The notes under the pieces are model-generated. The model was not told the origin of the DNA and made no database searches. It worked only from the letters and a program-made list of their open reading frames with translations. A stretch of DNA of 64,000 nt from Prorocentrum cordatum. Taxonomy: Eukaryota. This document shows positions 9,534 to 44,816 of the stretch, piece after piece (positions within the stretch are counted from its first letter, which is position 1; each line of letters starts with the position of its first letter). The stretch spans positions 1-64,000 of the forward strand of contig CAUYUJ010000078.1 in NCBI GenBank assembly GCA_963575745.1, in the 5' to 3' direction. The position numbers were made by a program, and so were the translations under genes.

Positions 9534-11149
9534 CCGCCTCCGTGCCTTGTCCCCGTCGCTCCCTGGCAACACCCCAAGATACCCTCCCGCGTTTTCTTGC
9601 CGCGCCTTCACGGCGGGTTCGCCGCCTGACAGGCTCCAGCCGCCAACCCCTGGCGGGGCCGCCGTGGGGGGAGAGATCTGCAGAAGACATCACCGCCATC
9701 ACATCATCGTCGTCTTTGCTTTACTGGAAAGCGTCGCGAAATGAGCCGCGCCTAGACGACACGTCAAGAAATGACTTTAAACAAAGACCACGAAAAACAT
9801 GAACACCCAAGTGACCGATTTTCTCGTTCCCGGGTAACGGTTGTTACCCTGGGGGGGGGGGTCGGGCGGGAATGTCACGGTGACGGCGGCAGCGGCGTGC
9901 ACCCGCCAGGGTGCGTCCGCGCCACCGGCGCATCAATCGCCTGTGCGCACCACAGCATGTAAGAGGGGGGTCCAGGCCCCCCCCAGCACGATGGTTAGCG
10001 CTACACGGGGGTGGGGTCGGCCCGGGCAACGAGCGTTACCCTGAGGAAAAAAAAATCACCAGAAGAACGCAAGCGCGCCGGTACACGGACACGGCACGCG
10101 GACGACTGCTGTGCGGCGGGTGGCACTGCAATGTCATGGTAAACATGCAGGTTAAAACAGGGCTAGGATCGGGATAAATCGCTCCAGAGCGTTCCGGAGC
10201 GCTCTCAGAGCGTTCTGGAACGCTCTGGAGTGGCCGCGGCGCCCAATACATCCTCCAAACCCCCTAATTCTCAGAGATTTCGAGTTATCCCGATCCGATT
10301 TTGTCCCGATCTTCGCGTCGTCTTAAGGGAGGGGGTCGACCGACCGGCCCCCGTCGGCGCGCCGGCCACGGCGGCGACGTCACCCGACGACACGGGGCGC
10401 TGGCCAGGCTGCGGAGGCGGCGAGCCGCGGCGGGCTGCGGGGTGTTCGGCCACGTCGTCGAGTGGACAAGGGATGCCCATGCCGAGTACGACGACTAGGC
10501 CAGTGGCGCGACCGCCGAGGTGGAGCACCACTTCATCGGCGACGGCGTCGAAAGCATCGAGGAGCGCCGGCATCGACGGCGGGACCTTGCTGGCCCCAGA
10601 GGGCGACGCTGCCGGTGAAGGACGGGCGCAGTGGCGGCTCGCCAGCATCCCGAGATTCCCTGTCCTGCGGGCCGAGGATCCGCGGTCGACGGGTGCCACC
10701 GTGGAGATCGAGAATATCGAGAAAATGCCGCAGGCAAAGTCCGCCGTGAAGACGGTCGATGTGCGCTGCCCCGGAGGGTTCCGGTGGGGCCTGGGCGAGA
10801 GGCTTCTTCTCTCTCGTGGCTGGTCAGGGGGGGGTGGGTCTAAAACTGCTCGTCTCGAAGGGTTGTGACCCCCCCCCTTCAATAATACGAATTTGGAGCA
10901 GCGAAGTGGGCCGTGCGGCGCCCCTGTCGGCTCGTCGGGGTGCTTCTGAAGCGGGAGCGGAGCCCTGCGAAGACGGCGGTGGTCAATGACTGTCACTGTG
11001 GTTGCAGCCAGCTCTGTGCCACGTCGCTGGCAAAACGTAGAATCATTGAGTCAGAATTGTCATTGTCCACGTCCCCGTCGTCCGAATACACATTGTCGCC
11101 CGCGTCCTCGTTTTCGTCGTCATCCTCGTCCTCGCCATCACATTCGCCA

Positions 11150-11445
11150 TCCTCCTCCGCCTCCTCCTCCTCCTCCTCCTCCTCCCTCCTCCCCTCCTCC
11201 TCCCTCCTCCTCCTCCTCCTCCTCCCCTCCTCCTCCTCTCCTCCTCCCTCCTCCTCCTCCTCCTCCTCCTCCCTCTCCTCCTCCTCCTCCTCCTCCTCCT
11301 CCTCCTCCTCCCTCCTCCTCCCTCCTCCTCCTCCTCCTCCTCCCTCCTCCTCCTCCTCCTCCTCCTCCTCCTCCTCCTCCTCTTCCTCGCTCCCGCCTCA
11401 TCCTCATCGCCGTCGTACTGCTCCTCCTCCCCCTCCTCCCCCTCC
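11150..11445. repeat. (CCT)n microsatellite, 5' flank of LINE A
   Basis: Direct inspection. Confidence 0.9.
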
Positions 11446-11543
11446 AGCTGCCATCTGGACCCAAGAGATTGTCAGGGCAGCAGACAAACACTCACCGCCA
11501 TTCCACAGCATGTGGAGTAAGAACTAACTGGGCAGAGGCCCGC

Positions 11544-14500
11544 ATGGCGGCAACGGCATGGACAGCGTCGTTGGCCCTGCTGCTATTCAACCCGCTCTCC
11601 GCGAAGCCCGACAGGCAGCAGGAAATCATCGAGGAAGCGGCCAACTTCGACGTCATCATCCTCGCAGGTACTCAACGATGGCGCCGAGAACTTCATCCCG
11701 AACAGCGTCGAATTCAGGGAGCCAGAGTGTACGACGCAGGCTGGAGGACGGGAACACTCACCAACCGCAGCACGGGCATGATGATAGCGCTCCAGGGCAA
11801 ACTAAGAGGAGCGCAGGTGATCAATGTTCTGGAGCCTCCAGGGGAACTTTGCGGCAGAGGCCTCGCACTTCAACTCGTACAGTACGACACCCAGATCACG
11901 ATCGTCAGCTACTATTGCCCGCCGCAGCCCAAGACCACGGCAGACCGCAAGCACTACTTCGCGACGGTGGCAAGATTATTCAAATGGATGGACGAGGTAG
12001 CAGCCAAACGCCCCAGGGGCAGCCTCCTCTTCACGGCAGGGGACCTCAACGACGGCATAGGCATCACGTGCAAGAACGAACACCCGAAGAGCGACTCGCT
12101 TGGAGCGGGCAGGGCGAAGGAGAAACTACCAGGCGGAGCGGGGCACAAAGCCAGACAGTACGCGGAGCGACACGGACTGACAGTCACCAACACGACGGGC
12201 ACATGGAGACCCACTTTTTTCGGGGAAACGACGGCCAGCTGTATAGACTACATCATGATGCCGACGACGCTGGCAAACAGCATCATCTCTCAAGGACCAC
12301 TCCTCCGCATGGGCACACGGCTGCAACACATTCGTAGCCGACGACATCGAGATCACGTCCCAGTGCAGCTCACAGTTCGTATTCCACTTCGGCAAAGAGT
12401 ACAAGCCCGACAACATACAGCACGATGGGATAAAGACAAACTGGCAGCGGCAGCACGCAAGGGACTACACGCAGAGTTATTCATCCAGGATCTGGAAGGA
12501 AAAGTCGCGAACTACAACGAGCACGGCAAAGGCATAGACCAGCTGTTCCAGAACTTGAATCAGATGATCATCGAAACGGCTCAACAGTATTATGGACAGG
12601 GACAACAGAAACCTGAGGAGTACCAGATACTAAGGGACAGACGAATGGAACTATTAAAAAGACGAAGAGACCTTCGAGAGCAACTACGACGCGAAGGAGA
12701 TAGCCTACTCATCAAGATCGCAGACTCGACCAAGCTGGACACAGCCAAGGTAGACTACATTCCAAGGGAAAATCCGACCAACAACCCCTACGCGCAGAAC
12801 TCAGACCAGCCAGGAGCAGAAGACGAACTCGATTCCCGCCGCCTACGACTGGACTACGTCGAGACCGAACTCAAGAACATCACGGCTACCTGCGCAGCCT
12901 GGCGCAAACTCGAGTACCAGCGGAAGACGGACGCCAGGGTGGAGGAGCTGTACGAGGCATGGGAACGCCGAGATCTTGCACGCGTGGGCCGACTGTCAAT
13001 ATTGATTGCTGGCGGAAGATATGGACCACGCAAGCGCGACTACTGGACGATGGTCACAGCCAACCCCACGAAGCAAGAGTGGACCGATTTCTGGCAGCTC
13101 CCAGGTGGATCAGGAGGTATGGAAGGCACAGGACTGAATAGAGAAGAAATTGAACATATTCCCATTGACGCAGATGAAATGGACTATTATGATAACGACA
13201 TAGAAGAACTTGTGGAGACAGATATGGAGGGCATTGCTAAACGGGTAAAAAAGGCTAAACTCCGACGTGCGGCACCACCGACAGCGGCCCCCAACGAGCT
13301 ATGGAGAGTGCTCCTTTGTCAGACAGACGAACAACCTCAACAGCAAAGACAAGGATTGGGGGCACTCCAACCACTTCCTCAGCCAGAAGGATTTCAAGAC
13401 CTCTTCAGGGCGGCACTGGCGGCCATCAGACTCAAGAACGCAACTCCAGTACGATGGCATCAGAGCGCGACAACAGCAGTCAAGAAGAACAACAAAGCGG
13501 GCCCTGCAGGAAAAAGGATATACCACATCATGGACCCGATCGGCAAGGCATTTTACTCATCCTGCATGGCTCGACAGAAGGCTCAGACTCACACTGACCA
13601 GGACTACGGCTTCATTAGAGGACGACGACGCGAAGGAGCCATATTGGCGATGGCGGTCGTCGAGTATCGGCAAGACAGGCAGGCTTCAATTACATCACGA
13701 CGATGAAGGACATGTCGAACGCCTTTGCCAGCTGCGCGTGGACAGCCATGGACGAGGCCAACAACAAGATCATGCCAGAAGACTCTACTGAGTTGGGAGC
13801 GCAGCGATACCGACGAGCTACGTTTGTCATACCATGTCGCGATCAGGAGGACGGAGTTTGCATCAAGCCACACTGTGGAGGACTGATAGGAGACCCGTAC
13901 ATGGTCAGTAACTTCGTGGCCAGCTTCTCGACGTGCATCAAGAACTGGATTGAGGACTGCAACAAAGAGTTAAAGAACGATGATCTGTTGTTTGGGAGCT
14001 GTGAGATATTTCAACATCCAGTTTACTTGGGACTGGCTAAGTATGCGGACGACCTTCGCAAGATCATCCTAGGTGACAAGCACGCAGATGCAGCAGATCT
14101 GGCAGCGCAGGCACACAAAGTGGACAACGCGCTCAACCAGAGGCTCGACGCGATCGGGATGCGCCAGAACGCAGACAAGCAGGAGAACATCGTCTACTTC
14201 CAAGGACAAGGAACGACCAAAGCACACCAGCAGCTCAAGACGAAGCCCGATTGCAAGCTACCTGGCAAAGTTGTTCCACATGCACGATATCTTGGACCAC
14301 AGATCAGCCCGACACTGAACTATGGGGCAGAACTCAACAAGCGAATCGCGGCCATGAAAAAGAGTTACAACGAATGTGGCAGCTTCTGGACTAAAGGGCA
14401 TATACCATACAGGTGGAAGCGAGCGGTCCTCATCTGCAGGGTGATCAACACAGGCCTCTCGTGCATCGAATGCTTCTTGCCGACGCCCAGAGAGTACCAG

Positions 14501-16453
14501 CAGCTACAGAGCGTTATGGGCGCACTACTTCGGCGAGCCATGCGAGGAGGCGCCACACGTCACAGAGACGGCAGCGTGCGGAGCCTTAGCACGCTGGAAG
14601 TATTTCGCTATTGGCAAATATTGCCGCCAGCGGAGGAAGCACTGGTGCGCCGACTCGGATGGTTCAAAAACATCCTTCGCTTCCCTAGCAATCACAGGCA
14701 GTTGATCGTAGCACTATTCGGGAGGGTCGAGTTCGAGACAAACGAAGACGAGGACAAACTCAGGACCGACACGAATCCCTGGGCTCAGAGGTTCTTGGAG
14801 GACGTCAGATACGCGTGTGGGGTCTCGGAGAGCTACTACAACACGCTAGGCGAGGGCGAGAACGTCACGATAGATAGGCTCTTCACTCTAGACGTTAGGG
14901 AACAACTATATCTACTTGATGTTCGGGAAGTTCGGGCAGCAAAACTCGGAGTGGCGGTCCCCCCACCAGGCTACACACAGCAAGATGTCCAAAGAGAAGA
15001 GCTAGCTTTAGAAGAACAGAAGCCATGGAAATGTGAACTTAAACACGGAGAAGCAGAATGTGGTCTATTATTCGCAAGCAAGAAAGCACTACATAGCCAT
15101 ATTATTCGAGCACATAATGTACACAACTTAGCAGCGGTGATGACATCAAACAACGAGTGCCTGAATTGCCAGCAAGTAATTACAAGCAAAGGTACGGCAT
15201 GGAAACATCTGGCAAGCAGTATGATCAAAGGAGGATGCAACAGAGACAGAACAAAGAATCAATATGTTCCGACGGCACAGTCTCCGCAATGCCCTCTCTG
15301 TAGTCATTTCTCTCTCGACAAGGGTGCGCAATTCATACACTTACGTACGCATCTCCCGCGACAACTCCTACAGCCGCCAAGAGGGATACGCCATGTCGCT
15401 GTTCGACCAGAGGCCATTGGGCCAGGCTCCACCAGGCCCAGCAGGAGGGGGCGCAGTCCGACGAGAGGATCGCAGCCGCCAACGAGGTCCAGTGCTACGC
15501 GGACCAGCGGTCGGCGGCGGAGGCAACCAGCAACAGATCACGGAGCTCACGGCGAGACTCACGCTCACGGTGGCACGAGAGCAAGCAGAAATGGCGGCGG
15601 CACTCATCCAAACTTGGGAAATCGCCACGTCGACGGGTATCGCTACCACGGCCCTCGGAGCGGGCAAGCACTACAACGACGAGGCGCAGCAGCTCCACCA
15701 GAGGCAGCGAGGCGGAGAACAAGTCGACCTAGGCAGCCTGGGCAGCCCGCACGTGAAGGTGTGGACGGAGACGTGCGCCTACCTGGGCAAGCAGCTCGAG
15801 GAGGGCGGACAGCTCAACGAGGTGAAGAGCCACTACGAGAACATTATGAAGAACGACACGGAAGCCCTCGCGGACATAGTACCAGTGTTCAGGGTCAGGC
15901 GCAACAAGGGCAAAGAGGGCGGCGGGGTCGAGAAGTGCCGATTCCAGTTCAAGTTCGGAGAGAGCAACCACCAGCTGTGCACGGTGCTGGTCAACCAGCT
16001 CAAGAAGGAGGGCGCCACTCGCAAGATCGGGTCGGCACCGAGGGGCGCCTTGGAGAGGGAGCTCGGCCGCCTAGTGAACGGATAGTCGACTTCGGCACGA
16101 TAGAGGAGGCGAACCTAGAGGATACGACCGCACGAGATCTACACCTGAGAGATGAGGAGGAGGAAAACAGTGTTCGAATTCGCCCAGTCCTTCCCCCACA
16201 GCTTCCCCAGGCCATCCCACGAGTTTTTGAGAATAGCGCCAGGTTCCGTGAGATAGTCAGGTCTGGACGTCTCCCACCTCCTCCTTCTCAGAATGCTGTG
16301 CCCGAAATCTTCCAATTCGATGGCCCACGTTTTCCTCAGTATTTACTAATGCACCGACCTCCCCCCCCTCCCGAACCGAAGCGTAAGGGACGAGGTAAGG
16401 GTAAACGGAGCCAGCGAAGCCAACAGCAGCAGCAGAGCGAACGACCTCCGTGA
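11544..16453 (+). pseudogene. APE endonuclease-reverse transcriptase-C2H2 zinc-finger polyprotein of LINE A with one frameshift (~13670)
   Basis: EN: FNPLS, DVIILAGT, AGDLND, CIDYI, RDHVPV. RT: DYGFIRGRRRE, KDMSNAF, GGLIGDP, KYADDL, RYLG. Three C-terminal C2H2-like fingers. ORFs 11544-13706 and 13703-16453 join as ...RQAGFNYITTMKD with a 1-nt indel. Confidence 0.9.
15393..16085 (+). CDS. Extra 230-aa ORF overlapping the 3' end of the LINE A RT ORF (+1 frame), function unknown
   Basis: ATG at 15393 (MSLFDQRP), protein-like composition, ends GSAPRGALERELGRLVNG*; a counterpart is present in LINE B. Confidence 0.75.
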   Translation: MSLFDQRPLGQAPPGPAGGGAVRREDRSRQRGPVLRGPAVGGGGNQQQITELTARLTLTVAREQAEMAAALIQTWEIATSTGIATTALGAGKHYNDEAQQLHQRQRGGEQVDLGSLGSPHVKVWTETCAYLGKQLEEGGQLNEVKSHYENIMKNDTEALADIVPVFRVRRNKGKEGGGVEKCRFQFKFGESNHQLCTVLVNQLKKEGATRKIGSAPRGALERELGRLVNG

Positions 16454-16979
16454 ATGCGGGTGCTACCCTGCCCGCAGACCCCTGCGTGGGGGAGGTCGGT
16501 GCAGGTCGGGCCCGAGCGTCCACTGACGTCTGCTCTACCAGTTTACTCAGAGAACACAGCTAGGCCGTGCTTAGATTACGCAGCTACTCAGAGCTAGCCA
16601 GAGCGTCAGTCACCCAGACATCGGCCCGACAGCTCGATCGATCGATCGATCCTCCCCCTCCTCCACCTCCCTGCCCCCACCCTCGTCCTTTTCGTCGTCC
16701 TCGTCTTCGCCGTCGCCATGGGCCGGCCCGGGGTGGCGGCGACCTTGGCCGGCGGGTCCTCGTCCGCCTGGTGCGGCTGGGGTGCAGCCTGCAAAACGGG
16801 CAGCGGCGAGGGCGAGGGCGGTGACACTGACCCGCCTCTCTTCCACCTCCTCCTTCTCCCTCCTCCTCCCCTCCTCCTCCCTTCTCCTCCCTCCCCCTCA
16901 CTCATCTCGACGAGGAGGACGTCGACGACGATGAGGGGGACCCAGGCACCTGGGCGCTGCGAAAAATATACGTAGCACC

Positions 16980-17345
16980 CCGCCGCAGTTGCGGATAAGA
17001 GTGAGGGGGCGGCAGGGACGTCAGGGACGTCGACAGTCTGCGTGGCTCTGAAAAGCCCGCCGCAAGCGCCTGATTCCGCAGTTGCAGATAAGAGTGAGGG
17101 GGCAGCGGGGACGTCGGCAGTCTGCGAGGCTCTGAAAAAGCCGCAGGCGCCTCATTTGCACAAATCATACAACGAGCTTGCCGCAGGCGTCGATTTTTTC
17201 GTGATGGCAGTGTGGGTGGGTCACGGGGTGGACCGCGGGTGGGTCGCGGGTGGGTCGCGGGTGGGTAGCGGGCTGGGTCGTTGGCTAGGTCGCGCGTGGG
17301 TCGCGGGTGGGTCGCGGGTGGGTCGCGGGCCAGGTCGCGGGGGGG
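16980..17345 (+). repeat. Dispersed repeat with (GGGTGGGTCGC)n; a related copy lies on the opposite strand at 50650-51420
   Basis: Both copies have CCGCAGGCG-containing subrepeats, then the GGGTGGGTCGC array, then (CAA)n. Confidence 0.7.
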
Positions 17346-17347
17346 AC

Positions 17348-17404
17348 GACAACAACAAACAACAAACCAAACAACACAACAAACAACAAACAACAAACAA
17401 CCAT

Positions 17405-36815: not shown

Positions 36816-37143
36816 CTGACTGAGAACCAGGAGAACAAGGGAGAGGCGATGACGGCGACAAGAGAGCAGCCAAGAGGCGGATCCAGCCGTGGCGACCAGA
36901 AGCGGATCCAGCCGTGGCTCTGCGGATCCAGCCGCGGCGACGATCCCGCCCCAGTGGAACACTCTGAGTCCTCATCCAGCCGTGGCGACGATCCCGCCCC
37001 AGAGAAACAAACACAAAAGCAACAAACGGCACGAAACAAAAACGACATACGGCACGAAACACCAACGAACAACGAAACGAACAACAAAACGAATGCCAAC
37101 ATCAAACTAAACAACGTTGTCCTCGGTCCTTGAAGACGTGCCG

Positions 37144-37165
37144 CATGTAACTATTTTGGCTCAAA
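37144..37165 (+). other. Spliced-leader relict upstream of the transposase
   Basis: CATGTAACTATTTTGGCTCAAA, 16/21 with a perfect ATTTTGGCTCAA core; ATG at 37214. Confidence 0.8.
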
Positions 37166-37213
37166 GCCCAGCTTGGTGCGGGCCTAGCTTAGCGATCGAG
37201 CTTGGCCTTCCCC

Positions 37214-39210
37214 ATGGAGTGGGAATCGGACGCCCGTGGCTCGTCGGATGGCGGCGCCGACTGGGAGTCTGCTTCAGCCGCCCATGCAGATGAAATGGAC
37301 GACGTGGCAGGGCGTAGCGATGCTGGGGATTCAGATGCTCGGTGTAGCGAGGCTAGAGACTCCGATGTGGAGAGGTCGGCAGGCAATATGTTTGTCGACT
37401 GCTGCTTGGGCCTGCTCCTGGCCAGAGATCTCACGTTCAAGAGCTTCTGCATTATTATGTGGCTGGCTGGGCGAGCTGGGATTTCGGAGGCCGAGCAATA
37501 TGGCAGGTCACCAGGTTGCAAAAGTGGTCATTACGCGAGACACTGCAAAAGGAAATTCGGAATCTGGGGCGATCGAAGTGCCATGTACGAAATAATTGTG
37601 CCTGGTCGGAAGCGGCGTCAAGTGGGTAGAGTTCCAGTCAAATTCAGCCCCTGTCCAGGGCACGAGCTTCTGCAACAAGATTTGGTTGACAACCCACAGA
37701 CTCTTGATGTGCTGCAGCGCCAAATTTGCCAGGGGAAACTGCCGCAATGCTACGTTGAGAACTCTGTTGTGCGGCAGCATGCGTGCGCGCCAGTTACCCC
37801 ATTAGCTTTATTCGGCGATGGCCTGCCATACTCACAAAAGGACTCGCTCATCGGATGGTGGATCGTAAACTTGATCACAGGGAGGAGGTACTTGTGCGCA
37901 GTATTGCGCAAGGCCATGGTATGCCGCTGCGGCTGTCTAGGTTGGTGCACCATGCATTGTTTATGTTTTTTTTTTTGTTTTTTCAGGTGGGAGTTCGAGT
38001 GTTTGGCGAGGGGCGAGTTCCCTCGAACCCGCCATGACGGGTCCGACTGGTTAGACAGCGATGCCTATCGAAAGGATCAGGCAGGACTCCCCTTGAAGGC
38101 CCTGCCTGCCTCCTCTACATAGAAGGGGGTTGGGCAGAATATGCATCTTCGCTTGGGTTTTCCCACTTGGGGCGATTCCCTAAGACCTTGCATATGGTGC
38201 AATGCAAAATTGCTCAACTTGTTTAACATTGCTGGCGTTACAGATACGTCAAGCGGTTGCTTTCGGGAAAATACACCGCTTGATTATGAAGTTGCATGCT
38301 CTCGATGTGAGCGACTCGTCGTGCTCTCCCCTAGTGACCACGCGATACTCGTCGCTTCACTAGAATATGATAAGCGGGACGGCGGGCCAAGAGGCGCGGC
38401 TGTCACGAGAGACCTGCCGAGCTTGGGGCTTCGCGCAGGGATGCGGGTGGAGCCATCCATATTTCTTTCAGATGTAGAAGAAGTGTTCTCTATCACCACC
38501 CTCCCCCCCCCCCCCCCCCAGTTCTATGTTGGGAGCGTGGCAACGAGTCCATGACATGGCATCGCAATCCTATGTTCGATGCACCTTGCTCGCATATTGG
38601 CATCACGGCAATGGGGGTGATGACCATCGATTCCTTGCACTGCCTGTATTTGGGAGTATTCAGAAATTTCGTAGCTGTACTTGTGTGGTTTTTTTTGTTA
38701 TGGGCGGATGGTGGAGCGCCGCGCATGGCGCGATTGAAGAGCGGATCGAGGCATCCCTCATGATGTTTCGCAGTCGATTGATGTCATGGTATAAGCAAAG
38801 GCGGGCCCTTCGACCAAACGAGGTCCTCACAGAAGTTGGAGACATCAGTCGAAGCATGACTGGTGGCAGCCAGTCGGGAACTATTTCGTTCAAGGGAGCT
38901 GAAGCGCGGGGCGTCCTGCTGTTTCTACTAGATGAGCTTCAAGCAAGTCGCATGTCTCATCGTTACTTGTCTGCTGGGCGAGCATTGGAGCAACTCGTCG
39001 AATGTTGGGGTTCAGATGGGTGGCGATTGACAAGCGAACAGGTGCTGGCAAGTTTCCGACATTTTAACACATTTGCGAGTCTCACATCAGACGTCCCAGA
39101 GTTAGAAATACCCAAGCGTCATTTGTTTGCTCACATGGTGCGGCATTTGCGATGGTTTGGCAACCCTCGTTTTTACGCGAACTGGACCAACGAGTCCAAC
39201 ACCAAACGTG
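37214..39210 (+). pseudogene. EnSpm/CMC-like DDE transposase, frameshifted
   Basis: PLALFGDGLP, CRCGCLGWCT, YIEG(G)WAEY (KGDW-like), RPCIWC, IDSLHCLYLGV (DxxH), IPKRHLFAHM, GNPRFYANWTNESN; frameshifts near 38100, 38160, 38520 and 38700. Confidence 0.75.
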
Positions 39211-39690
39211 CTGAATTCGGTCAACCGACAAATGGCAGACCGCGATCAAGGCGGCCGCTAGCGTCGCTGCAAACACTCGGCGGGAGTAGGAAGAGGATAG
39301 GAGAAGGAGGAGGAGGAGGAGGAGGAGGGGGGGGGAGAGGAACAACTATACGAAACAATGGAAGGAGGTCGTCGATGTGTGTTTCTTGTGTTTGGGAGCC
39401 CTGGGGAACCTGGGGCACGGCCCTGGGCGCTGGGCGAATGTTTTTTTTGTTTGGGCGAGGCCCTGGGACAAGTGGGGCGGGAGGACGGCGACGCCGACGA
39501 TGGCGGCGACACCTCCTTTCCCACGCCGTGGAGCACGGCTCGGCTCGTGGACGGCACCTTCGCGCACGAAATCGCGGGCCCCGCCGCGAAGGAAGGAGGG
39601 CGAGGGGGAGGAGGAGGAGGAGGAGGAGGAGGAGGAGGAGGGGAGGAGGAGGAGGAGGAGGATGAGGAGGGGGAGGAGGAGGAGGAGGAG

Positions 39691-42600
39691 TCTCGTCTCG
39701 TCTCGACCCCATTCAAGCAAATCTCCATGGACGGCGATGGCTGCTCTGGGTTGGGGTTGACATCTGTGTCTCCCCTCTCTCAAACTGCTGTGCGCGGGAG
39801 GCCTGCTGCGCGGCTGGCGCAGGCGACATGCGCCTCGATTGGCGCCCGCACGGGGGGCGCGCTAACGGGGCGCCCGCCAGACGGGGAGAAGCGTTACTCC
39901 AGGAAGTCCGAGAGCAGAAAAACGACCCATTTGGAACGAAAGGGGTCGTTTTCTATGATTGCGAAAAAAAGGCACGAGCGACTTCCTCCTCGGCATCATT
40001 GAGGTCAGGTGGGGCCGCGCTGCCAGTGTTGGAGCTGCTTCCAAACAGGCGACGAGGTGGGCGAGCGCTGCCCGAGGTCACGGACGGGCGGGGGGACCTA
40101 GGAGGACTGTCTAAACCAGGCGGTGGCCTCACTCGATGGAAACTCACTTGCCCTTCCTGCCGCCTCCGATGCGCCTGGCCAAGTTCCCCCTCGGTGCCTT
40201 GTTGACTAGGTGGCGGCCTCCTGCCGCGCGCATCTGCTCCGCTAGGAGCAGGTCGATGTCGATCATGTACCCCTTCATCTGGTAGACGGTGGTGGGGGTC
40301 TCGTTGGGGCTCACCTGCTTGATCGCGTCGTCGGCGCCATCGAGCGCTGCCATGAGCTTCTCGTGATCCGCCGCTTCCGCGGCCATGAATATCTGTCCTT
40401 TGAGGCTGAAAGTAAGGCGTGACTTCTGGGCCTTGCCTGGCGCGTCGTAGGTTGGGTTGGCCACCATCTCCTGGATCCATGTCTGCGCTGTCGTGGAGCC
40501 CCCGACCTCGATCATCCTCTTGAGGCGCTTGATGCACATCGTGCAGGCGGCCCTCCGCTCTGAGGTACCCTTGTACTCGTAGCTGCTCAAAACGTCGAGA
40601 ACCGCGAAAGCACTCTGGCACGCGGGGGTGGCGTGGTCCTGCTGGGGGTGGTCCTTCTGCTGCTTGAGGAACCGCTGGAACGCGGCGTTGCTCTCTCTGA
40701 TGCACGGGTGGTTGCGATCGAGGAGCACGGTGGTGAACCCCTGGTGCTCGATGGCGCGCATCCTGGCCTCGAGCTGGTACACCAGGTCGCGAAGTGGGCC
40801 TGCTGTCTCCTCGCTGTCGTCCATGCCCTCGTCCTCGTTGCCGTTGTGCTTCCTCTGCTTGCGCTTCTCCTGACGGTCTGTCCCGCTCCCCTTCTTGTGT
40901 AGGATCCAGTCGGCTGCGGGCGCGGATGCGGCCGCCTCGCCACTCCCTCGCGCCGCCATGGCCAACTCCCTGAGGCTCTCGAACGTGGAAACTGGGCGGG
41001 AGGTGGCGCTTGATGTGTGCGGCAGCGTGATCGAGATAGCTGGCTAAGGAGTCTTGTTCCTCGAAACAGACAGGGCATTCCAGGCTCTTGGGTTCGATCA
41101 TTTTGTCCCCGTATCTCACTCGGTTCTTGGGGCAATAATTCCGTCGCATGCTTGCCGCCACGTGGTGCACTGCGCTGGCGCGATCACGGAAGACGCTCTG
41201 ACAGATCGGACACACGTTGGTTATAGTGAGTACTCGGCCGATGTGCAACTGCCCATGCGACCCCCCTCGAGAATTGGCGACGCGCGCGACCAACTGTTTC
41301 CTACTGGGCCAGCAAGTCCCGCATATCATGCCATCGTCCCACGTCTCCTGGCACACGAAGCTGCCCTCCCCCCTCTCCCTGTCCTTCTTCCTCTCCTCAT
41401 CCTGTCCAGTGTAGAACACCGACCTGAGCTCATCAACATCTATCTTGACAAACTGATCTGGATCGTCGAACAATATGGTGTGAATGTTGTTGTTAGTGAT
41501 GAGTTCCTGCCCGCTCTCCGTCTCGCGCAACGCCAGGATGTCCTGCTGCGCTTGTCGCGCCCATGGGTTGCTGTTCTCATGTACGTAGCCCTCGCGAAAC
41601 ACCCCCCCCCCCCCCCATCGCATATCATACTGCCAAAGACTGCCGACAAGTATTGTGCATGATACTCTTTTCGAGCAACCATTGTCCGAAGCCATTTAAG
41701 ACGCCTGATCCGAAGCTCCAAGAATAGACTGGCCATTCTGAACTTCTTAAGAACCTGCAGGTTGCTATCCGTGATAATGTGCGTGTCATGCTCGTTCATG
41801 CGTGCAGTACCTTGTAGCATGCCTCTACATTTACTCAGTATGTAGCTCTGATGTGGCTGGAGGTCTCGTGCGCGCAGCGGGCCTCCCTCATGGACACATA
41901 CCTCCAGTCCTGACAGCGCGGCGTTCACGAGAAGTCCTTTTACGACGTTCCTCTTGACGGCGAACGGGGCATCACTAGACCAAAACCCTCCCATACTGTG
42001 AAATCCTGCTTTTAGAGCTGCAAGTCGCTTCTGAAGTTCGGGAAGGGGGGAGAAGGTAGACGACTGGAGGCCTCCAAGATACCTGACATGGTGAGCGACT
42101 TTGCCGTCTAACCGATGTTTGTCCCTGGAGAAGACCCTGTTTGTGGCATGCGCCCCCCACCCAGCCAGATAGCACACGTTTTCCTCTTTCTCTAGATTCT
42201 GAGACGCGCCTATCTCGTGTAGTCCAGTGTCGAGCGCTGTGTTCTCGATGGTACCTCCTCTCTCCAACTGCTCCTGCATGCTGCCCTCCCCAACCTCTAA
42301 GACCTTGGTGGCGATATCATCTACGAAGCCCGTGATGCCTACCTGCTCCTCTTCCGCTGGCCACGGAGGACTCGTCTCCAGGACGACGTGCCACTGGTTC
42401 TCTAATGCCGCATCAGCATATCTTGCGAACGGGGGGAGATAGGTCCTGTTGAACAACTTCGCAGCGCCTGTGTCCCCTGGAAAGACGCCCCTGGTGGCCC
42501 GCATCCAGAAGTCCCCTGACTCATCCGAGATGTTAACTAAATTGCGCTTGACCCGATCTGTGATGAACTGATGGTCCTGGGGGTCGTAGCAGTCTTGCGC

Positions 42601-43850
42601 CGCCTCTAGAATGCTTTCCTGATGCAAGCTGTAGAACGCGTTGACGGCATCGTGACATCGAAGCAGGTGCGACACCCCTCCAGCTTGCAGACGATACGAC
42701 GACACGAGCTGGACGCCCATGGCTTCCCCCCTCCGTCTCCCGCTTATCCCTCCATATATCCACGACGGTGCTGTCCACTGAGGGCTCTTCCTCCGCAGGA
42801 GAGAGGCGTTGCATGTGCGGCCAAGCGTGCACATCATCATGATCAACCGCTCACCGTCACACTCCACTTTGCGGTTGCACTTCGGGATCCTAGCAGCTTG
42901 CGCACAGCGCCAGCGAACGGGCGTGCGACTCGTGCGGCGGCACCCTGCGAGCAGGGCCTGGAGCATTCCACGCGTGGTCGGGATCCTGGGAAGCTCCTGA
43001 TTATACCCAAGGCCCATGAGAGTCACTGGCTTCCTGTCGTTCATTTTGTGCGGGAAGAAAACGAGTCGCAGGCACTCGGGGGGAACGCTCCACACAGGCC
43101 ACGATCTCCAGAATTTCAATTTCCATACGGTGGTGGACATCTCCCGCCAGTCTTCCGCTGCAAGGTACGCCGCTGCACTGTCTTCCATGCGCTCCCGTCG
43201 CTCATCTCTCATGTCCTGAACGGCCTGCTCTACTGTGTAGGAGATCGCTCGGCACCCTCCTCTATCAGGTTCAAGTTTCAACCGTTGCGCCCACGCACAG
43301 GCCGAGGCAGCTGATCCTGGCACCACCGCAAACCTTCTCTGTCTCGGCCCCCGGCGCTTTCCAGCGATGAGTCTCGCGAGTTTTTGAACCAAGTATCCGT
43401 TTTGGTCCTTGAGGGCCTGAGTCATTTCGGCACACCGTCTCTTCTGGATCTGCTCCCAGTACGCACGTGCAGTATCCTTGAGCTGCTTGCTGATGGTGCG
43501 TATGCGCGTGCTCATATCGTTCACAATGCTGGCGTCGCCGTCGACATGTGCGTGCTCCTCCTTGTATCTCCTCCTCCTGGCCAATAGTGTGCGCAACTCA
43601 GCTGCATGTGCTTTGCGATCTTCCGTGTAGAGAGGGCTGTCTCGCAACGCGTCGGCAACGGCTTCATTCAACGCGTTGATGAGCAACGTGTTCATTGTGT
43701 CTATATCCTCCGTCCTCTGGGTCTCAGCGAACTCCTCCCCCTTGCTCTCCGCCGCCTCCTCCATCTTCCTAAGCACCTCCTGACGCATGTACCCTACCTG
43801 AACGCACTGATACAAGGCTTCGCGGTTTGCCCGTGGACGAGCAACCCTCG
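39691..43850 (-). mobile_element. 5'-truncated non-LTR retrotransposon (LINE B) nested in the TIR element
   Basis: RT: YGGISGRRR, HDAVNAFYSL, GVFPGD, GFVDDI, VRYLG; C2H2 fingers (CPICQSVF..HHV, CPVC..H..H); frameshift near the C-run at 41600-41640; (GAGAC)3 tail; (CCT)n on both sides in element orientation; no endonuclease domain left. Confidence 0.88.
40144..40959 (-). CDS. Extra 271-aa ORF overlapping the 3' end of the LINE B RT ORF (+1 frame), function unknown
   Basis: ATG at 40959 (MAARGSGE), ends GGRHLVNKAPRGNLARRIGGGRKGK*; same position, frame and C-terminal APRG motif as in LINE A. Confidence 0.75.
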   Translation of the reverse strand: MAARGSGEAAASAPAADWILHKKGSGTDRQEKRKQRKHNGNEDEGMDDSEETAGPLRDLVYQLEARMRAIEHQGFTTVLLDRNHPCIRESNAAFQRFLKQQKDHPQQDHATPACQSAFAVLDVLSSYEYKGTSERRAACTMCIKRLKRMIEVGGSTTAQTWIQEMVANPTYDAPGKAQKSRLTFSLKGQIFMAAEAADHEKLMAALDGADDAIKQVSPNETPTTVYQMKGYMIDIDLLLAEQMRAAGGRHLVNKAPRGNLARRIGGGRKGK

Positions 43851-44062
43851 CAGGAGGAGGAGGAGGAGGAGGACGCAAGGAGGAGGAGGAGGAGGAGGAC
43901 GCAAGGAGGAGGAGGAGGAGGAGGAGGAGGGGGAGGGGGAGGAGGAGGGGGACGGGGGGGGGGGAGGCGGTGGGGGGGGGGCGAGGAGGGGGGGAAGGGG
44001 GGGCGGGATGGGGGGGGAGGAGGAGGAAGAGGAGGAGGAGGAGGAGGAGGCCGCTTCTCCTT

Positions 44063-44098
44063 ACCGTAGCCATATTGCTCAAAGCCATGTGGTTCAAA
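44063..44098 (+). other. Tandem spliced-leader relicts
   Basis: ACCGTAGCCATATTGCTCAAA followed by GCCATGTGGTTCAAA; the first 11 nt are identical to SL. No convincing ORF downstream. Confidence 0.8.
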
Positions 44099-44816
44099 TG
44101 TGTTCCAACTCTGGCGTTCAATCCACGATTGCTCTTCTGCGAGACCAGAGTGGGCGGCGCGCGTCCACCACGGCGGGCGCGCGCAACAAAAGCTCCAGCA
44201 CGACAGTGCTTTCAACCAGGGTATATTACCCACAATCTACACGACGAGCGAAAATTCCAACACGGCCCGCTCCCCGACCACTTGGGCGTTCAACCGCTAC
44301 AATCAGCTGCAGCTCCAAGGCAACGGCGTTTTCGCCCACAGCGCGCTCACCAAAAGCCAGCGGTAGTTCCAGCACGACGGTGTCTCCATTCACTGGAAGT
44401 CCACTTGCTGGGGGTGCGTCCCGCCGCCGTTCCAACGCAACGCCATCCACGGCCCCTCGGGGCCCAACTGTTGCGAGAGGGGCGACGCCTACGGAAGACA
44501 ACGGGCTTCACACCACCCCTTGGCCGCGCAGCGCGCATGGGGCGGTCGGCGCGCGCGCCCGACTGCGCAAACACCCCCCGCAATAGCGCAACGCATTCCA
44601 ACCGGCGACGTGGATTCACATCGGACGCGCGTGCAACGCGCGCCCATGTGATCACGGCCAACATAAGCACACGCACCAAACGTCCGCAACATGCGGATGT
44701 AATTCGCTGTTGCGTTTCATACGGGCATTAATTCGATACGCCGTTCACGTGCTTAGATTTCAAGGCGTTATTATAATGCCTGGGGCCTTAGATCTAAGGC
44801 CCCTGGGACCACAGGG

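Follow-up and report, generated by a model that had tools for sequence, protein, structure and literature searches.

Long interspersed nuclear elements (LINEs) usually carry either a single open reading frame (ORF) or an ORF1 upstream of ORF2, and the L1, CR1/L2, Jockey and I groups are of the two-ORF type with an apurinic/apyrimidinic endonuclease (APE). In LINEs of the ingi/L1Tc type, a single ORF ends in C2H2 zinc fingers with nucleic-acid chaperone activity, a role that the fingers of the LINE protein carry in L1Tc of Trypanosoma cruzi, and we know of no separate nested gene in L1Tc. Overprinted genes are familiar from compact viruses, in which one frame encodes a folded or selected protein and the other a disordered, biased one that is mainly kept open. 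Here we describe two divergent LINEs, labelled A and B, in a 64,000-nucleotide stretch of the dinoflagellate Prorocentrum cordatum (assembly GCA_963575745.1, contig CAUYUJ010000078.1, positions 1 to 64,000; hereafter the window). Each carries a second gene downstream of its reverse transcriptase (RT), nested in the +1 frame within the stop-free continuation of the RT frame.

Like the two-ORF APE-type LINEs, these elements combine a putative APE-like endonuclease and an RT in one long ORF with a second small basic protein, show 5′ truncation (LINE B) and have no long terminal repeats (LTRs). Unlike in those LINEs, the second gene is found downstream of the RT instead of upstream of ORF2 and occupies the +1 frame of the ORF2 C-terminal extension, within which it is nested, and Pfam and fold searches show no similarity of its product to the coiled-coil/RRM/CTD proteins (Transposase_22) or to esterases. 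With ingi/L1Tc the elements share the order of a putative APE and an RT followed by C2H2-type fingers, the absence of a 5′ ORF1 and a chaperone at the coding 3′ end, known for L1Tc and proposed here. They differ in that RNase H was not detected and that a separate nested gene is present, a distinction drawn from layout. As in viral overprinting, one stretch of DNA is open in two frames, one folded or selected and one disordered, but here the host is a cellular retrotransposon, and it is the nested gene that encodes the folded, conserved protein and the long ORF that has the disordered stretch.

SymbioLINE-Dnmt elements of Symbiodinium (de Mendoza et al. 2018, PMC5890265) are dinoflagellate LINEs that lack a poly-A tail and have conserved 5′ and 3′ untranslated regions (UTRs), and they resemble the elements in the window in carrying an unconventional accessory gene under purifying selection. 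That gene, a DNA methyltransferase, is however an ORF1 upstream of the RT, and a 3′ or nested ORF is not mentioned in the accessible part of that report. LTR and Penelope-like retroelements can have an ORF3 downstream of pol (Rodriguez et al. 2017, PMC5408684; Arkhipova 2017, PMC5718144), so that an extra ORF past the RT, of varied and often unknown function, is found there too across divergent lineages. Their ORF3s are separate and recognisable (env, GDSL, DEDDy), whereas the gene described here belongs to a LINE, overlaps ORF2 in full and encodes a protein that matches no described fold. Full-text searches of the literature, which did not extend to subscription journals, Repbase reports or bioRxiv supplements, turned up no LINE described as having a nested 3′ gene. 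The comparison suggests that the elements combine a new LINE gene order with a maintained dual-frame segment and an unannotated protein family of new fold.

An initial annotation of the window had claimed ORFs of 230–270 amino acids just after the last zinc finger of both LINEs, in the +1 frame and with an open RT frame across them, ending in the similar motifs GSAPRGALERE (LINE A) and NKAPRGNLARR (LINE B), in elements with little nucleotide similarity. Each of these points holds in the sequence. Read from stop to stop, the RT frame of LINE A spans 13619–16453 (944 codons) and the +1 frame 15225–16085, with an ATG at 15393 and a stop at 16083–16085; on the minus strand, the RT frame of LINE B spans 41695–39953 and the +1 frame 41043–40144, with an ATG at 40959 and a stop at 40146–40144. 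The nested ATG lies 8–15 codons past the last zinc finger, and the RT frame has no stop over the nested ORF in either element and ends 368 nucleotides (LINE A) or 191 nucleotides (LINE B) past its stop. The two motifs share the pattern APRG-x-L-x-R. At the nucleotide level the elements have no significant similarity (best blastn E 0.018 over 26 nucleotides), but their RT/zinc-finger proteins are homologous, with 27% identity over 251 amino acids (E 4e-16).

The nested protein belongs to a conserved family. Among 2008 candidates, the LINE A protein has six relatives at 60–72% identity over its full length, one of which is named, as an unnamed protein product of Prorocentrum cordatum. The resulting 7-row alignment has a mean column identity of 68% and a variable, low-complexity N-terminus. 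A profile made from it matches 256 proteins at E ≤ 1e-3 among 1.84 billion representatives (67 at E ≤ 1e-10, 5 at E ≤ 1e-30), most of them 180–280 amino acids long with the domain at the extreme C-terminus. Of 20 representatives whose labels were inspected, 7 are named, all as Prorocentrum cordatum, 5 of these carrying Polarella glacialis as an additional nr label. One member (P0023) bears only a transcript name, with the TRINITY suffix ‘.p2’ of the second ORF of a transcript, and another (P0167, in the cluster of P0032) a Pyramimonas transcriptome label. In 99 members of at most 300 amino acids (9 longer ones were dropped), the median length is 231 amino acids, the domain ends a median of 4 residues from the C-terminus and the median isoelectric point (pI) of the domain is 9.08 (range 4.8–10.0). 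Near-invariant positions in the LINE A protein are L56, G117, P119, G213, P216, E221 and R222, which make up an LG-x-PH motif and a G-x-APRG-x-LER motif. In one 714-residue P. cordatum gene model (P0041), the family domain occupies residues 519–709 behind a 500-residue region that has a Walker-A-like GxxxxGKT motif and no Pfam match.

The relation between the nested proteins of LINEs A and B emerges only at profile depth. BLASTP between them is not significant (best E 0.32), the LINE B ORF has no relatives in a word-indexed search and the shallow 7-row profile does not show the relation (hhalign probability 10.7%). A family profile was built from the 108 of 154 database sequences that cover at least 150 profile positions, with the window translations and a 4802-residue coiled-coil protein (P0022) left out. 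It matches the LINE A ORF at E 1.2e-63 and the LINE B ORF with 25.8 bits (E 1.9e-9, 4 targets), and both matches are colinear, with the N-terminal helix and the C-terminal motif included. These two nested ORFs are the only ones to match among 608 window ORFs of at least 60 amino acids (six-frame, stop-to-stop, E ≤ 10), and the RT-frame translations do not match. A profile test with linkage to the RT had been proposed in the initial annotation; its outcome is a match to both ORFs from database sequences only, and a nested gene linked to an RT in all three loci for which DNA is available (LINE A, LINE B and a third locus, L001).

L001, a metagenome contig of 3695 bp, is the sole related locus from a metagenome scan, and IMG/VR contained none. 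It is 67.3% identical to LINE A over 3473 nucleotides, the similarity stops exactly at the (GATC)n 3′ end, and its nested gene (L001 2262–2954) again lies in the +1 frame. Comparison of the two reveals which frame is under selection. Across the RT and fingers, mismatches at RT codon positions 1/2/3 are 0.23/0.17/0.54 and the ratio of non-synonymous to synonymous differences (pN/pS) in the RT frame is 0.25. Over the core of the nested ORF, they become 0.46/0.35/0.23 at the same positions, the wobble being the third position of the +1 frame (shift to RT position 1, Fisher P 9e-5), and the +1 frame has a pN/pS of 0.47, as against 1.45 for the RT frame and 0.91 for the third frame. The selection in both frames that the initial annotation had asked to be compared is thus purifying in the nested frame. 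The +1-frame periodicity is present from the ATG onward (15393–15530, 0.44/0.21/0.28). Past the nested stop, mismatches are 0.35/0.27/0.51 with the wobble at RT position 3 (Fisher P 5e-4), and pN/pS is 0.52 in the RT frame as against 1.09 and 1.49 in the other frames. Beyond the RT-frame stop, pN/pS is 0.84–0.97 in all frames with no periodicity (P 0.73), and this region is therefore 3′ UTR. From 5′ to 3′, purifying selection passes from the RT frame, up to the fingers, to the +1 frame over the nested ORF and back to the RT frame in the tail.

The predicted structure of the nested protein is that of a compact domain with a flexible arm. For LINE A, AlphaFold2 with a 101-row family alignment gives a mean predicted local distance difference test (pLDDT) score of 87.2 and a predicted template modelling score of 0.75; residues 1–43 are predicted to be disordered and rich in Arg, Gly and Pro, and residues 44–230 form an α/β domain, mostly with pLDDT >90. 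In the LINE B model (pLDDT 77.3), helices and strands follow one another as they do in LINE A, apart from an insert at about residues 190–234; as evidence for the family this model is partly circular, having been made with the family’s own alignment. A homodimer prediction for residues 40–230, run without an alignment and with the protein’s own fold uncertain in it, scored 0.00 and speaks neither for nor against oligomerisation. The structure prediction that the initial annotation had called for thus gives a confident fold that has no match in the Protein Data Bank (PDB) or BFVD, and the models point to an α/β domain of about 185 amino acids with no known fold.

Because it has relatives, frame-specific selection, a predicted structure and a specific profile, the +1-frame ORF is a genuine, selected gene. 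That it is a chance open frame in GC-rich DNA, or a host gene that a single 3′ transduction event brought in and that has no bearing on the element, is very improbable indeed. The GC content of the window (0.49–0.71 per 2 kb), its many long spurious ORFs and the non-significant BLASTP comparison would fit such an origin, but the frame-specific selection, the 256 related clusters and the confident predicted fold already refute a chance ORF, and elements with RTs of only 27% identity have the gene in an identical location and frame. Its divergence also keeps step with that of the RT: between A and L001, identity is 70% in the RT region and 62% in the nested ORF core, and between A and B it is 27% in the RT and about 12% in the ORF, a pattern in which the nested gene appears to have co-diverged with the RT.

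As opposed to the nested frame, the RT frame over the nested gene seems to be kept open without being selected for its amino acids. The RT-frame linkers of A and L001 are 41% identical over 143 amino acids, which is what their shared nucleotides would yield, and the pN/pS of 1.45 shows no amino-acid-level selection in this frame. Expected stops were obtained by resampling synonymous codons of the nested gene, with RT usage or the gene’s own usage, or by permuting its own codons. LINE A has 0 RT-frame stops, where 6.4 are expected with RT usage (P 0.0005) and 1.6 with own usage (P 0.20; permutation P 0.149); L001 has 0, with 3.3 (P 0.031) and 1.7 (P 0.15; permutation P 0.123) expected; and LINE B has 0, with 12.0 (P 0.000) and 3.7 (P 0.023; permutation P 0.0105) expected. 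The third frame has 7, 4 and 7 stops in A, L001 and B, respectively. Combined over the three elements, P is 0.024 with own codon usage and 0.009 with synonymous permutation, and in all three both frames appear to be open over the same DNA beyond chance. The nested genes have a GC content at third codon positions of 0.77–0.85 and a T content there (T3) of 0.03–0.05, and the RT parts have 0.59–0.71 and 0.07–0.16; a third-position T in the nested gene is the base that would make RT-frame stops.

The tail that follows behaves as coding sequence. Over 65 amino acids, A and L001 share 54% identity in their RT-frame tails (E 1e-16), which are proline-rich at first and then end in a basic PKRKGRG cluster (PKRKGRGKGKR in LINE A), with no conserved ATG. 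The conserved core of the LINE A tail can be reached only from upstream in the RT frame, because no Met precedes it. Pfam has no match to the RT-frame tails, and the C-terminal half of the RT-frame protein P0002 (residues 430–944) found nothing at E ≤ 1e-3 among 8000 scored candidates of the protein collection, in a search that low complexity probably swamps. The stop-free RT frame together with the returning selection in the tail suggests genuine dual coding over about 700 nucleotides, in which the ORF2 protein would cross the overlap as a spacer rich in Arg, Gly and Pro, with no constraint beyond an open frame, and then enter a selected tail. This dual-frame reading appears to hold for the A/L001 pair and in part for LINE B.

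An alternative is that there is no true dual coding: the ORF2 protein would functionally end after the fingers and the stop-free RT frame would be a by-product of codon usage rich in third-position G and C and poor in T. The single-element probabilities with own usage (0.20, 0.15 and 0.023 for A, L001 and B) and the RT-frame pN/pS of 1.45 over the overlap are in line with it. We nevertheless consider it unlikely, as all three elements are stop-free where the third frame is not, with a combined P of 0.009–0.024, the RT frame regains periodicity and a pN/pS of 0.52 directly past the ORF stop, and the LINE A tail core has no ATG of its own. The initial annotation had proposed an inverted architecture. 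This stands to the extent that LINE A has its second gene 3′ of the RT and no 5′ ORF1; the renewed purifying selection on the RT frame past the ORF makes the arrangement nested and apparently dual-coding, however, and not a simple inversion of gene order. The nested ORF was also considered as the ORF1 of a tandem downstream element and rejected, as the RT-frame tail, the 3′ UTR and the element end come after it.

How the nested gene is translated can be narrowed down from its start. The ATG lies in the context GCC/GGC-ATG-G/T in all three elements, and the N-terminus M[SA]LFDQRP aligns in LINE A, L001, P0007 and P0008. Scanning cannot reach this AUG past about 3.8 kb of upstream ORF, and a shorter RNA, internal entry or frameshifting is needed. 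Programmed +1 ribosomal frameshifting, a common device in retroelements, would yield an APE-RT-zinc-finger fusion to the nested protein. Ribosomes translating ORF2 meet no RT-frame stop near the nested ATG and pass across it, and the +1 frame is open for 56 codons (LINE A) and 28 codons (LINE B) upstream of it, both as frameshifting would have it. In L001, however, the +1 frame is closed by a stop 5 codons ahead of the ATG, which confines any shift site to the last 15 nucleotides upstream of that ATG or to a point downstream of it. Conservation among A, L001, P0007 and P0008 also covers the ATG and the first 8 residues, no slippery motif common to the three frame junctions was seen (by eye only), and frameshifting gives no reason for an open RT frame on which selection is regained downstream. 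We regard it as quite unlikely.

The preferred reading, which we consider evenly poised, is that the nested gene is the second gene of the LINE, encoding a nucleic-acid-binding partner that is made on a subgenomic RNA with initiation at the gene’s own AUG, with the RT frame kept open through it to a selected tail. The nested protein would be the functional equivalent of ORF1p or Gag, coating or chaperoning the LINE RNA. Such a role appears to be the most economical one for a small basic protein that joins a compact domain to a disordered N-terminus rich in Arg and Gly and diverges together with the RT, in an element devoid of a 5′ ORF1. LINE A, with its 98-nucleotide leader and upstream ORFs that have no Pfam or family match, has no 5′ ORF1. 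The subgenomic RNA would be 3′-coterminal with the element, and the distance from the nested ATG to the end of LINE A is about 1.26 kb; contigs with unnamed family members are mostly 0.9–1.7 kb long in a collection with a median of about 1 kb, and nothing is drawn from this. The basic tail of the ORF2 protein would serve that protein itself, for example in nuclear import. Every mRNA of dinoflagellates is trans-spliced, and spliced-leader trans-splicing at an AG just upstream could conceivably make the subgenomic RNA. A search of the window for relics of the leader (15-nucleotide core, at most 3 mismatches) gave 3 matches where 1.86 are expected, none of them adjoining either LINE.

Several points weigh against this preferred reading. 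Selection on the tail is seen in one sequence pair (A and L001), and the LINE B tail has no evident similarity to that of LINE A. The strictest null for stop avoidance is exceeded only moderately, with single probabilities of 0.15–0.2 for A and L001, themselves related, and the low T3 of the nested genes could be codon bias rather than stop avoidance. Both window copies carry frameshifts in the RT and are probably dead copies or carry assembly errors. P0041 may be a fused gene model or may place the family domain outside LINEs as well. The subgenomic RNA and its trans-splicing are purely conjectural, and upstream AG dinucleotides are too common to count. The protein itself offers little to go by: no Pfam family matches the LINE A and B ORFs (E ≤ 0.1) or 13 further members (E ≤ 0.01), a PDB sequence search with the family profile reaches only E 0.67, and the best structural matches are at E 0.086 (Foldseek, PDB), E 0.09 (BFVD) and Z 4.8 (VIA-align, 48,161 chains), none a fold match, in lists where the absence of a family does not exclude that family. 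In the ESM Atlas, features of the nested protein place retrotransposon-gag clusters first at 0.88, under the tool’s 0.9 mark and a lead only; the model is α/β, unlike an all-alpha protein, and a likeness to PF03732-type gag has no Pfam or fold match.

The same evidence would also suit a LINE accessory gene that is not an RNA chaperone, acting as a target-site or DNA-binding cofactor or as an antagonist of host silencing, with the C2H2 fingers of the ORF2 protein as the chaperone. The fold searches find nothing that resembles an ORF1p, RRM or gag fold, the three C2H2-like fingers of the element could act as those of L1Tc do, and all three elements sit in (CCT)n repeats, which makes a targeting factor conceivable. 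Nothing speaks specifically against it, and the basic pI and Arg/Gly-rich N-terminus fit DNA as well as RNA binding; we give it a minor but real share of credence. A bolder form of the preferred reading, in which an old, large LINE lineage follows a virus-like strategy, is possible but rather doubtful: ORF2 would run through the nested gene, a spliced-leader trans-spliced, 3′-coterminal mRNA would supply the sole Gag/ORF1p equivalent, and that RNA, bearing the LINE 3′ end, might itself be retrotransposed.

If the nested gene is indeed the sole second gene, placed behind the RT and in another frame, it represents a new LINE architecture and a rare cellular case of maintained dual coding. The lineage is widespread in dinoflagellates (256 clusters at 50% identity), whose genomes are very large, rich in LINEs and well stocked with retrogenes. 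It offers a handle on retroposition in organisms with trans-spliced mRNAs, and the nested protein is possibly an RNA-binding partner for retrogene formation, a process by which these genomes have been shaped. Annotation also gains, as hundreds of proteins about 230 amino acids long, listed as ‘unnamed protein products’ in genomes of the P. cordatum type, become recognisable as LINE genes.

The host elements form an old dinoflagellate-type lineage of LINEs with a putative APE, an RT and zinc fingers (Table 1). They have no LTRs, variable 5′ truncation and a defined 3′ end, common to LINE A and L001 at (GATC)n, and are thus of the non-LTR class; target-site duplications are unreadable, with (CCT)n on both flanks. 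The RT motifs read YADD in LINE A and FVDD in LINE B. Pfam does not report RVT_1 for the RT proteins of the window even at a maximum E of 10, and ESM Atlas features of the L001 RT homologue match RVT_1 clusters best (0.96, 183 shared features, 24/30 matches); the RT is thus LINE-type by language-model features and motifs, not by a hidden Markov model. The candidate endonuclease of LINE A matches Pfam Exo_endo_phos only below threshold, at E 0.019 (15.1 bits, cut-off 24.5) over profile positions 15–205 of 225, and the N-terminus of P0087 has no significant similarity to it (E 0.39). LINE B has no endonuclease part and begins inside the linker. In PDB sequence searches, P0002 has no match and P0001 only low-complexity, proline-rich ones. 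The presumed 5′ boundary of LINE A was set where the microsatellite stops rather than by comparison with another full-length element, and a tblastn search with all six translations gave no additional copy in the window. The frameshifts are copy-specific: LINE A has a 1-nucleotide deletion at about 13677 relative to L001, and the RT frames of LINE B overlap at 41440–41695. L001 has one in-frame stop within the finger region (L001 2129–2131).

Table 1 Coordinates of LINEs A and B and their parts in the window.
Feature	Position	Strand	Remarks
LINE A	about 11446–16651	+	
(CCT)n-type microsatellite	11130–11445	+	Directly 5′ of LINE A; repeat type recurs at the 3′ end
Presumed 5′ UTR of LINE A, 98 nt	11446–11543	+	Up to the endonuclease ATG at 11544
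LINE A ORF2, 5′ portion: AP-endonuclease-like domain, N-terminal part of RT	11544–13706	+	Frame ended by a copy-specific frameshift
LINE A ORF2: RT core (YADD) and three C2H2-like zinc fingers	13619–15370	+	RT frame
RT-frame reading over the LINE A nested gene	15371–16084	+	Stop-free, Arg/Gly/Pro-rich low-complexity linker
Nested +1-frame gene of LINE A, 230 aa	15393–16085	+	C-terminal end GSAPRGALERELGRLVNG
RT-frame C-terminal tail of LINE A	16085–16453	+	Conserved core 16163–16357
LINE A 3′ UTR	16454–16651	+	(GATC)4 at end, where homology to L001 ends
(CCT)n-type repeat	16652–16700	+	Directly 3′ of LINE A
LINE B	about 43850–39690	-	5′-truncated
LINE B post-endonuclease linker and RT	41440–43850	-	5′ end adjoins (CCT)n repeat at about 43850–44055
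LINE B RT C-terminal region and zinc fingers	41005–41695	-	Other frame than 41440–44211 (copy-specific frameshift)
LINE B RT frame over and beyond the nested gene	39953–41004	-	Stop-free over the gene and 191 nt past its stop
Nested +1-frame gene of LINE B, 271 aa	40144–40959	-	Distant member of the same family; C-terminal end NKAPRGNLARRIGGGRKGK
LINE B 3′ UTR	39690–39952	-	(GAGAC)3 then (TCC)n at end

In all three elements, a (CCT)n-type microsatellite follows directly after a terminal short tandem repeat, which is (GATC)n in LINE A and L001 and (GAGAC)3 in LINE B. The same repeat type, in the same orientation, lies directly at the 5′ ends of LINEs A and B (positions in Table 1, with 39600–39689 at the 3′ end of LINE B and L001 3487–3510). 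Such flanks suggest that the elements insert site-specifically at (CCT)n or, alternatively, that the microsatellite tail is templated. A GC-rich block of the 3′ UTR is common to LINE A (16454–16651) and L001 (3257–3486) at about 65–70% identity; it begins about 10 nucleotides past the RT-frame stop and could be a recognition element for the RT.

Elsewhere in the window, a degenerate match to the spliced-leader core, with 2 of 15 positions mismatched, lies at 37140–37166 on the plus strand, about 50 nucleotides upstream of an ATG. The ORF downstream of it (37193–38122, 300 codons) has no Pfam match and is a possible retrogene that retains a relic of the leader; the number of leader-core matches in the window is not above chance. 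Downstream of LINE A, the region 16990–17400 contains a direct repeat of roughly 85 nucleotides (about 16990–17160), followed by GGGTGGGTCGCG-like units (17200–17340) and a (CAA)n-like tract from 17350.

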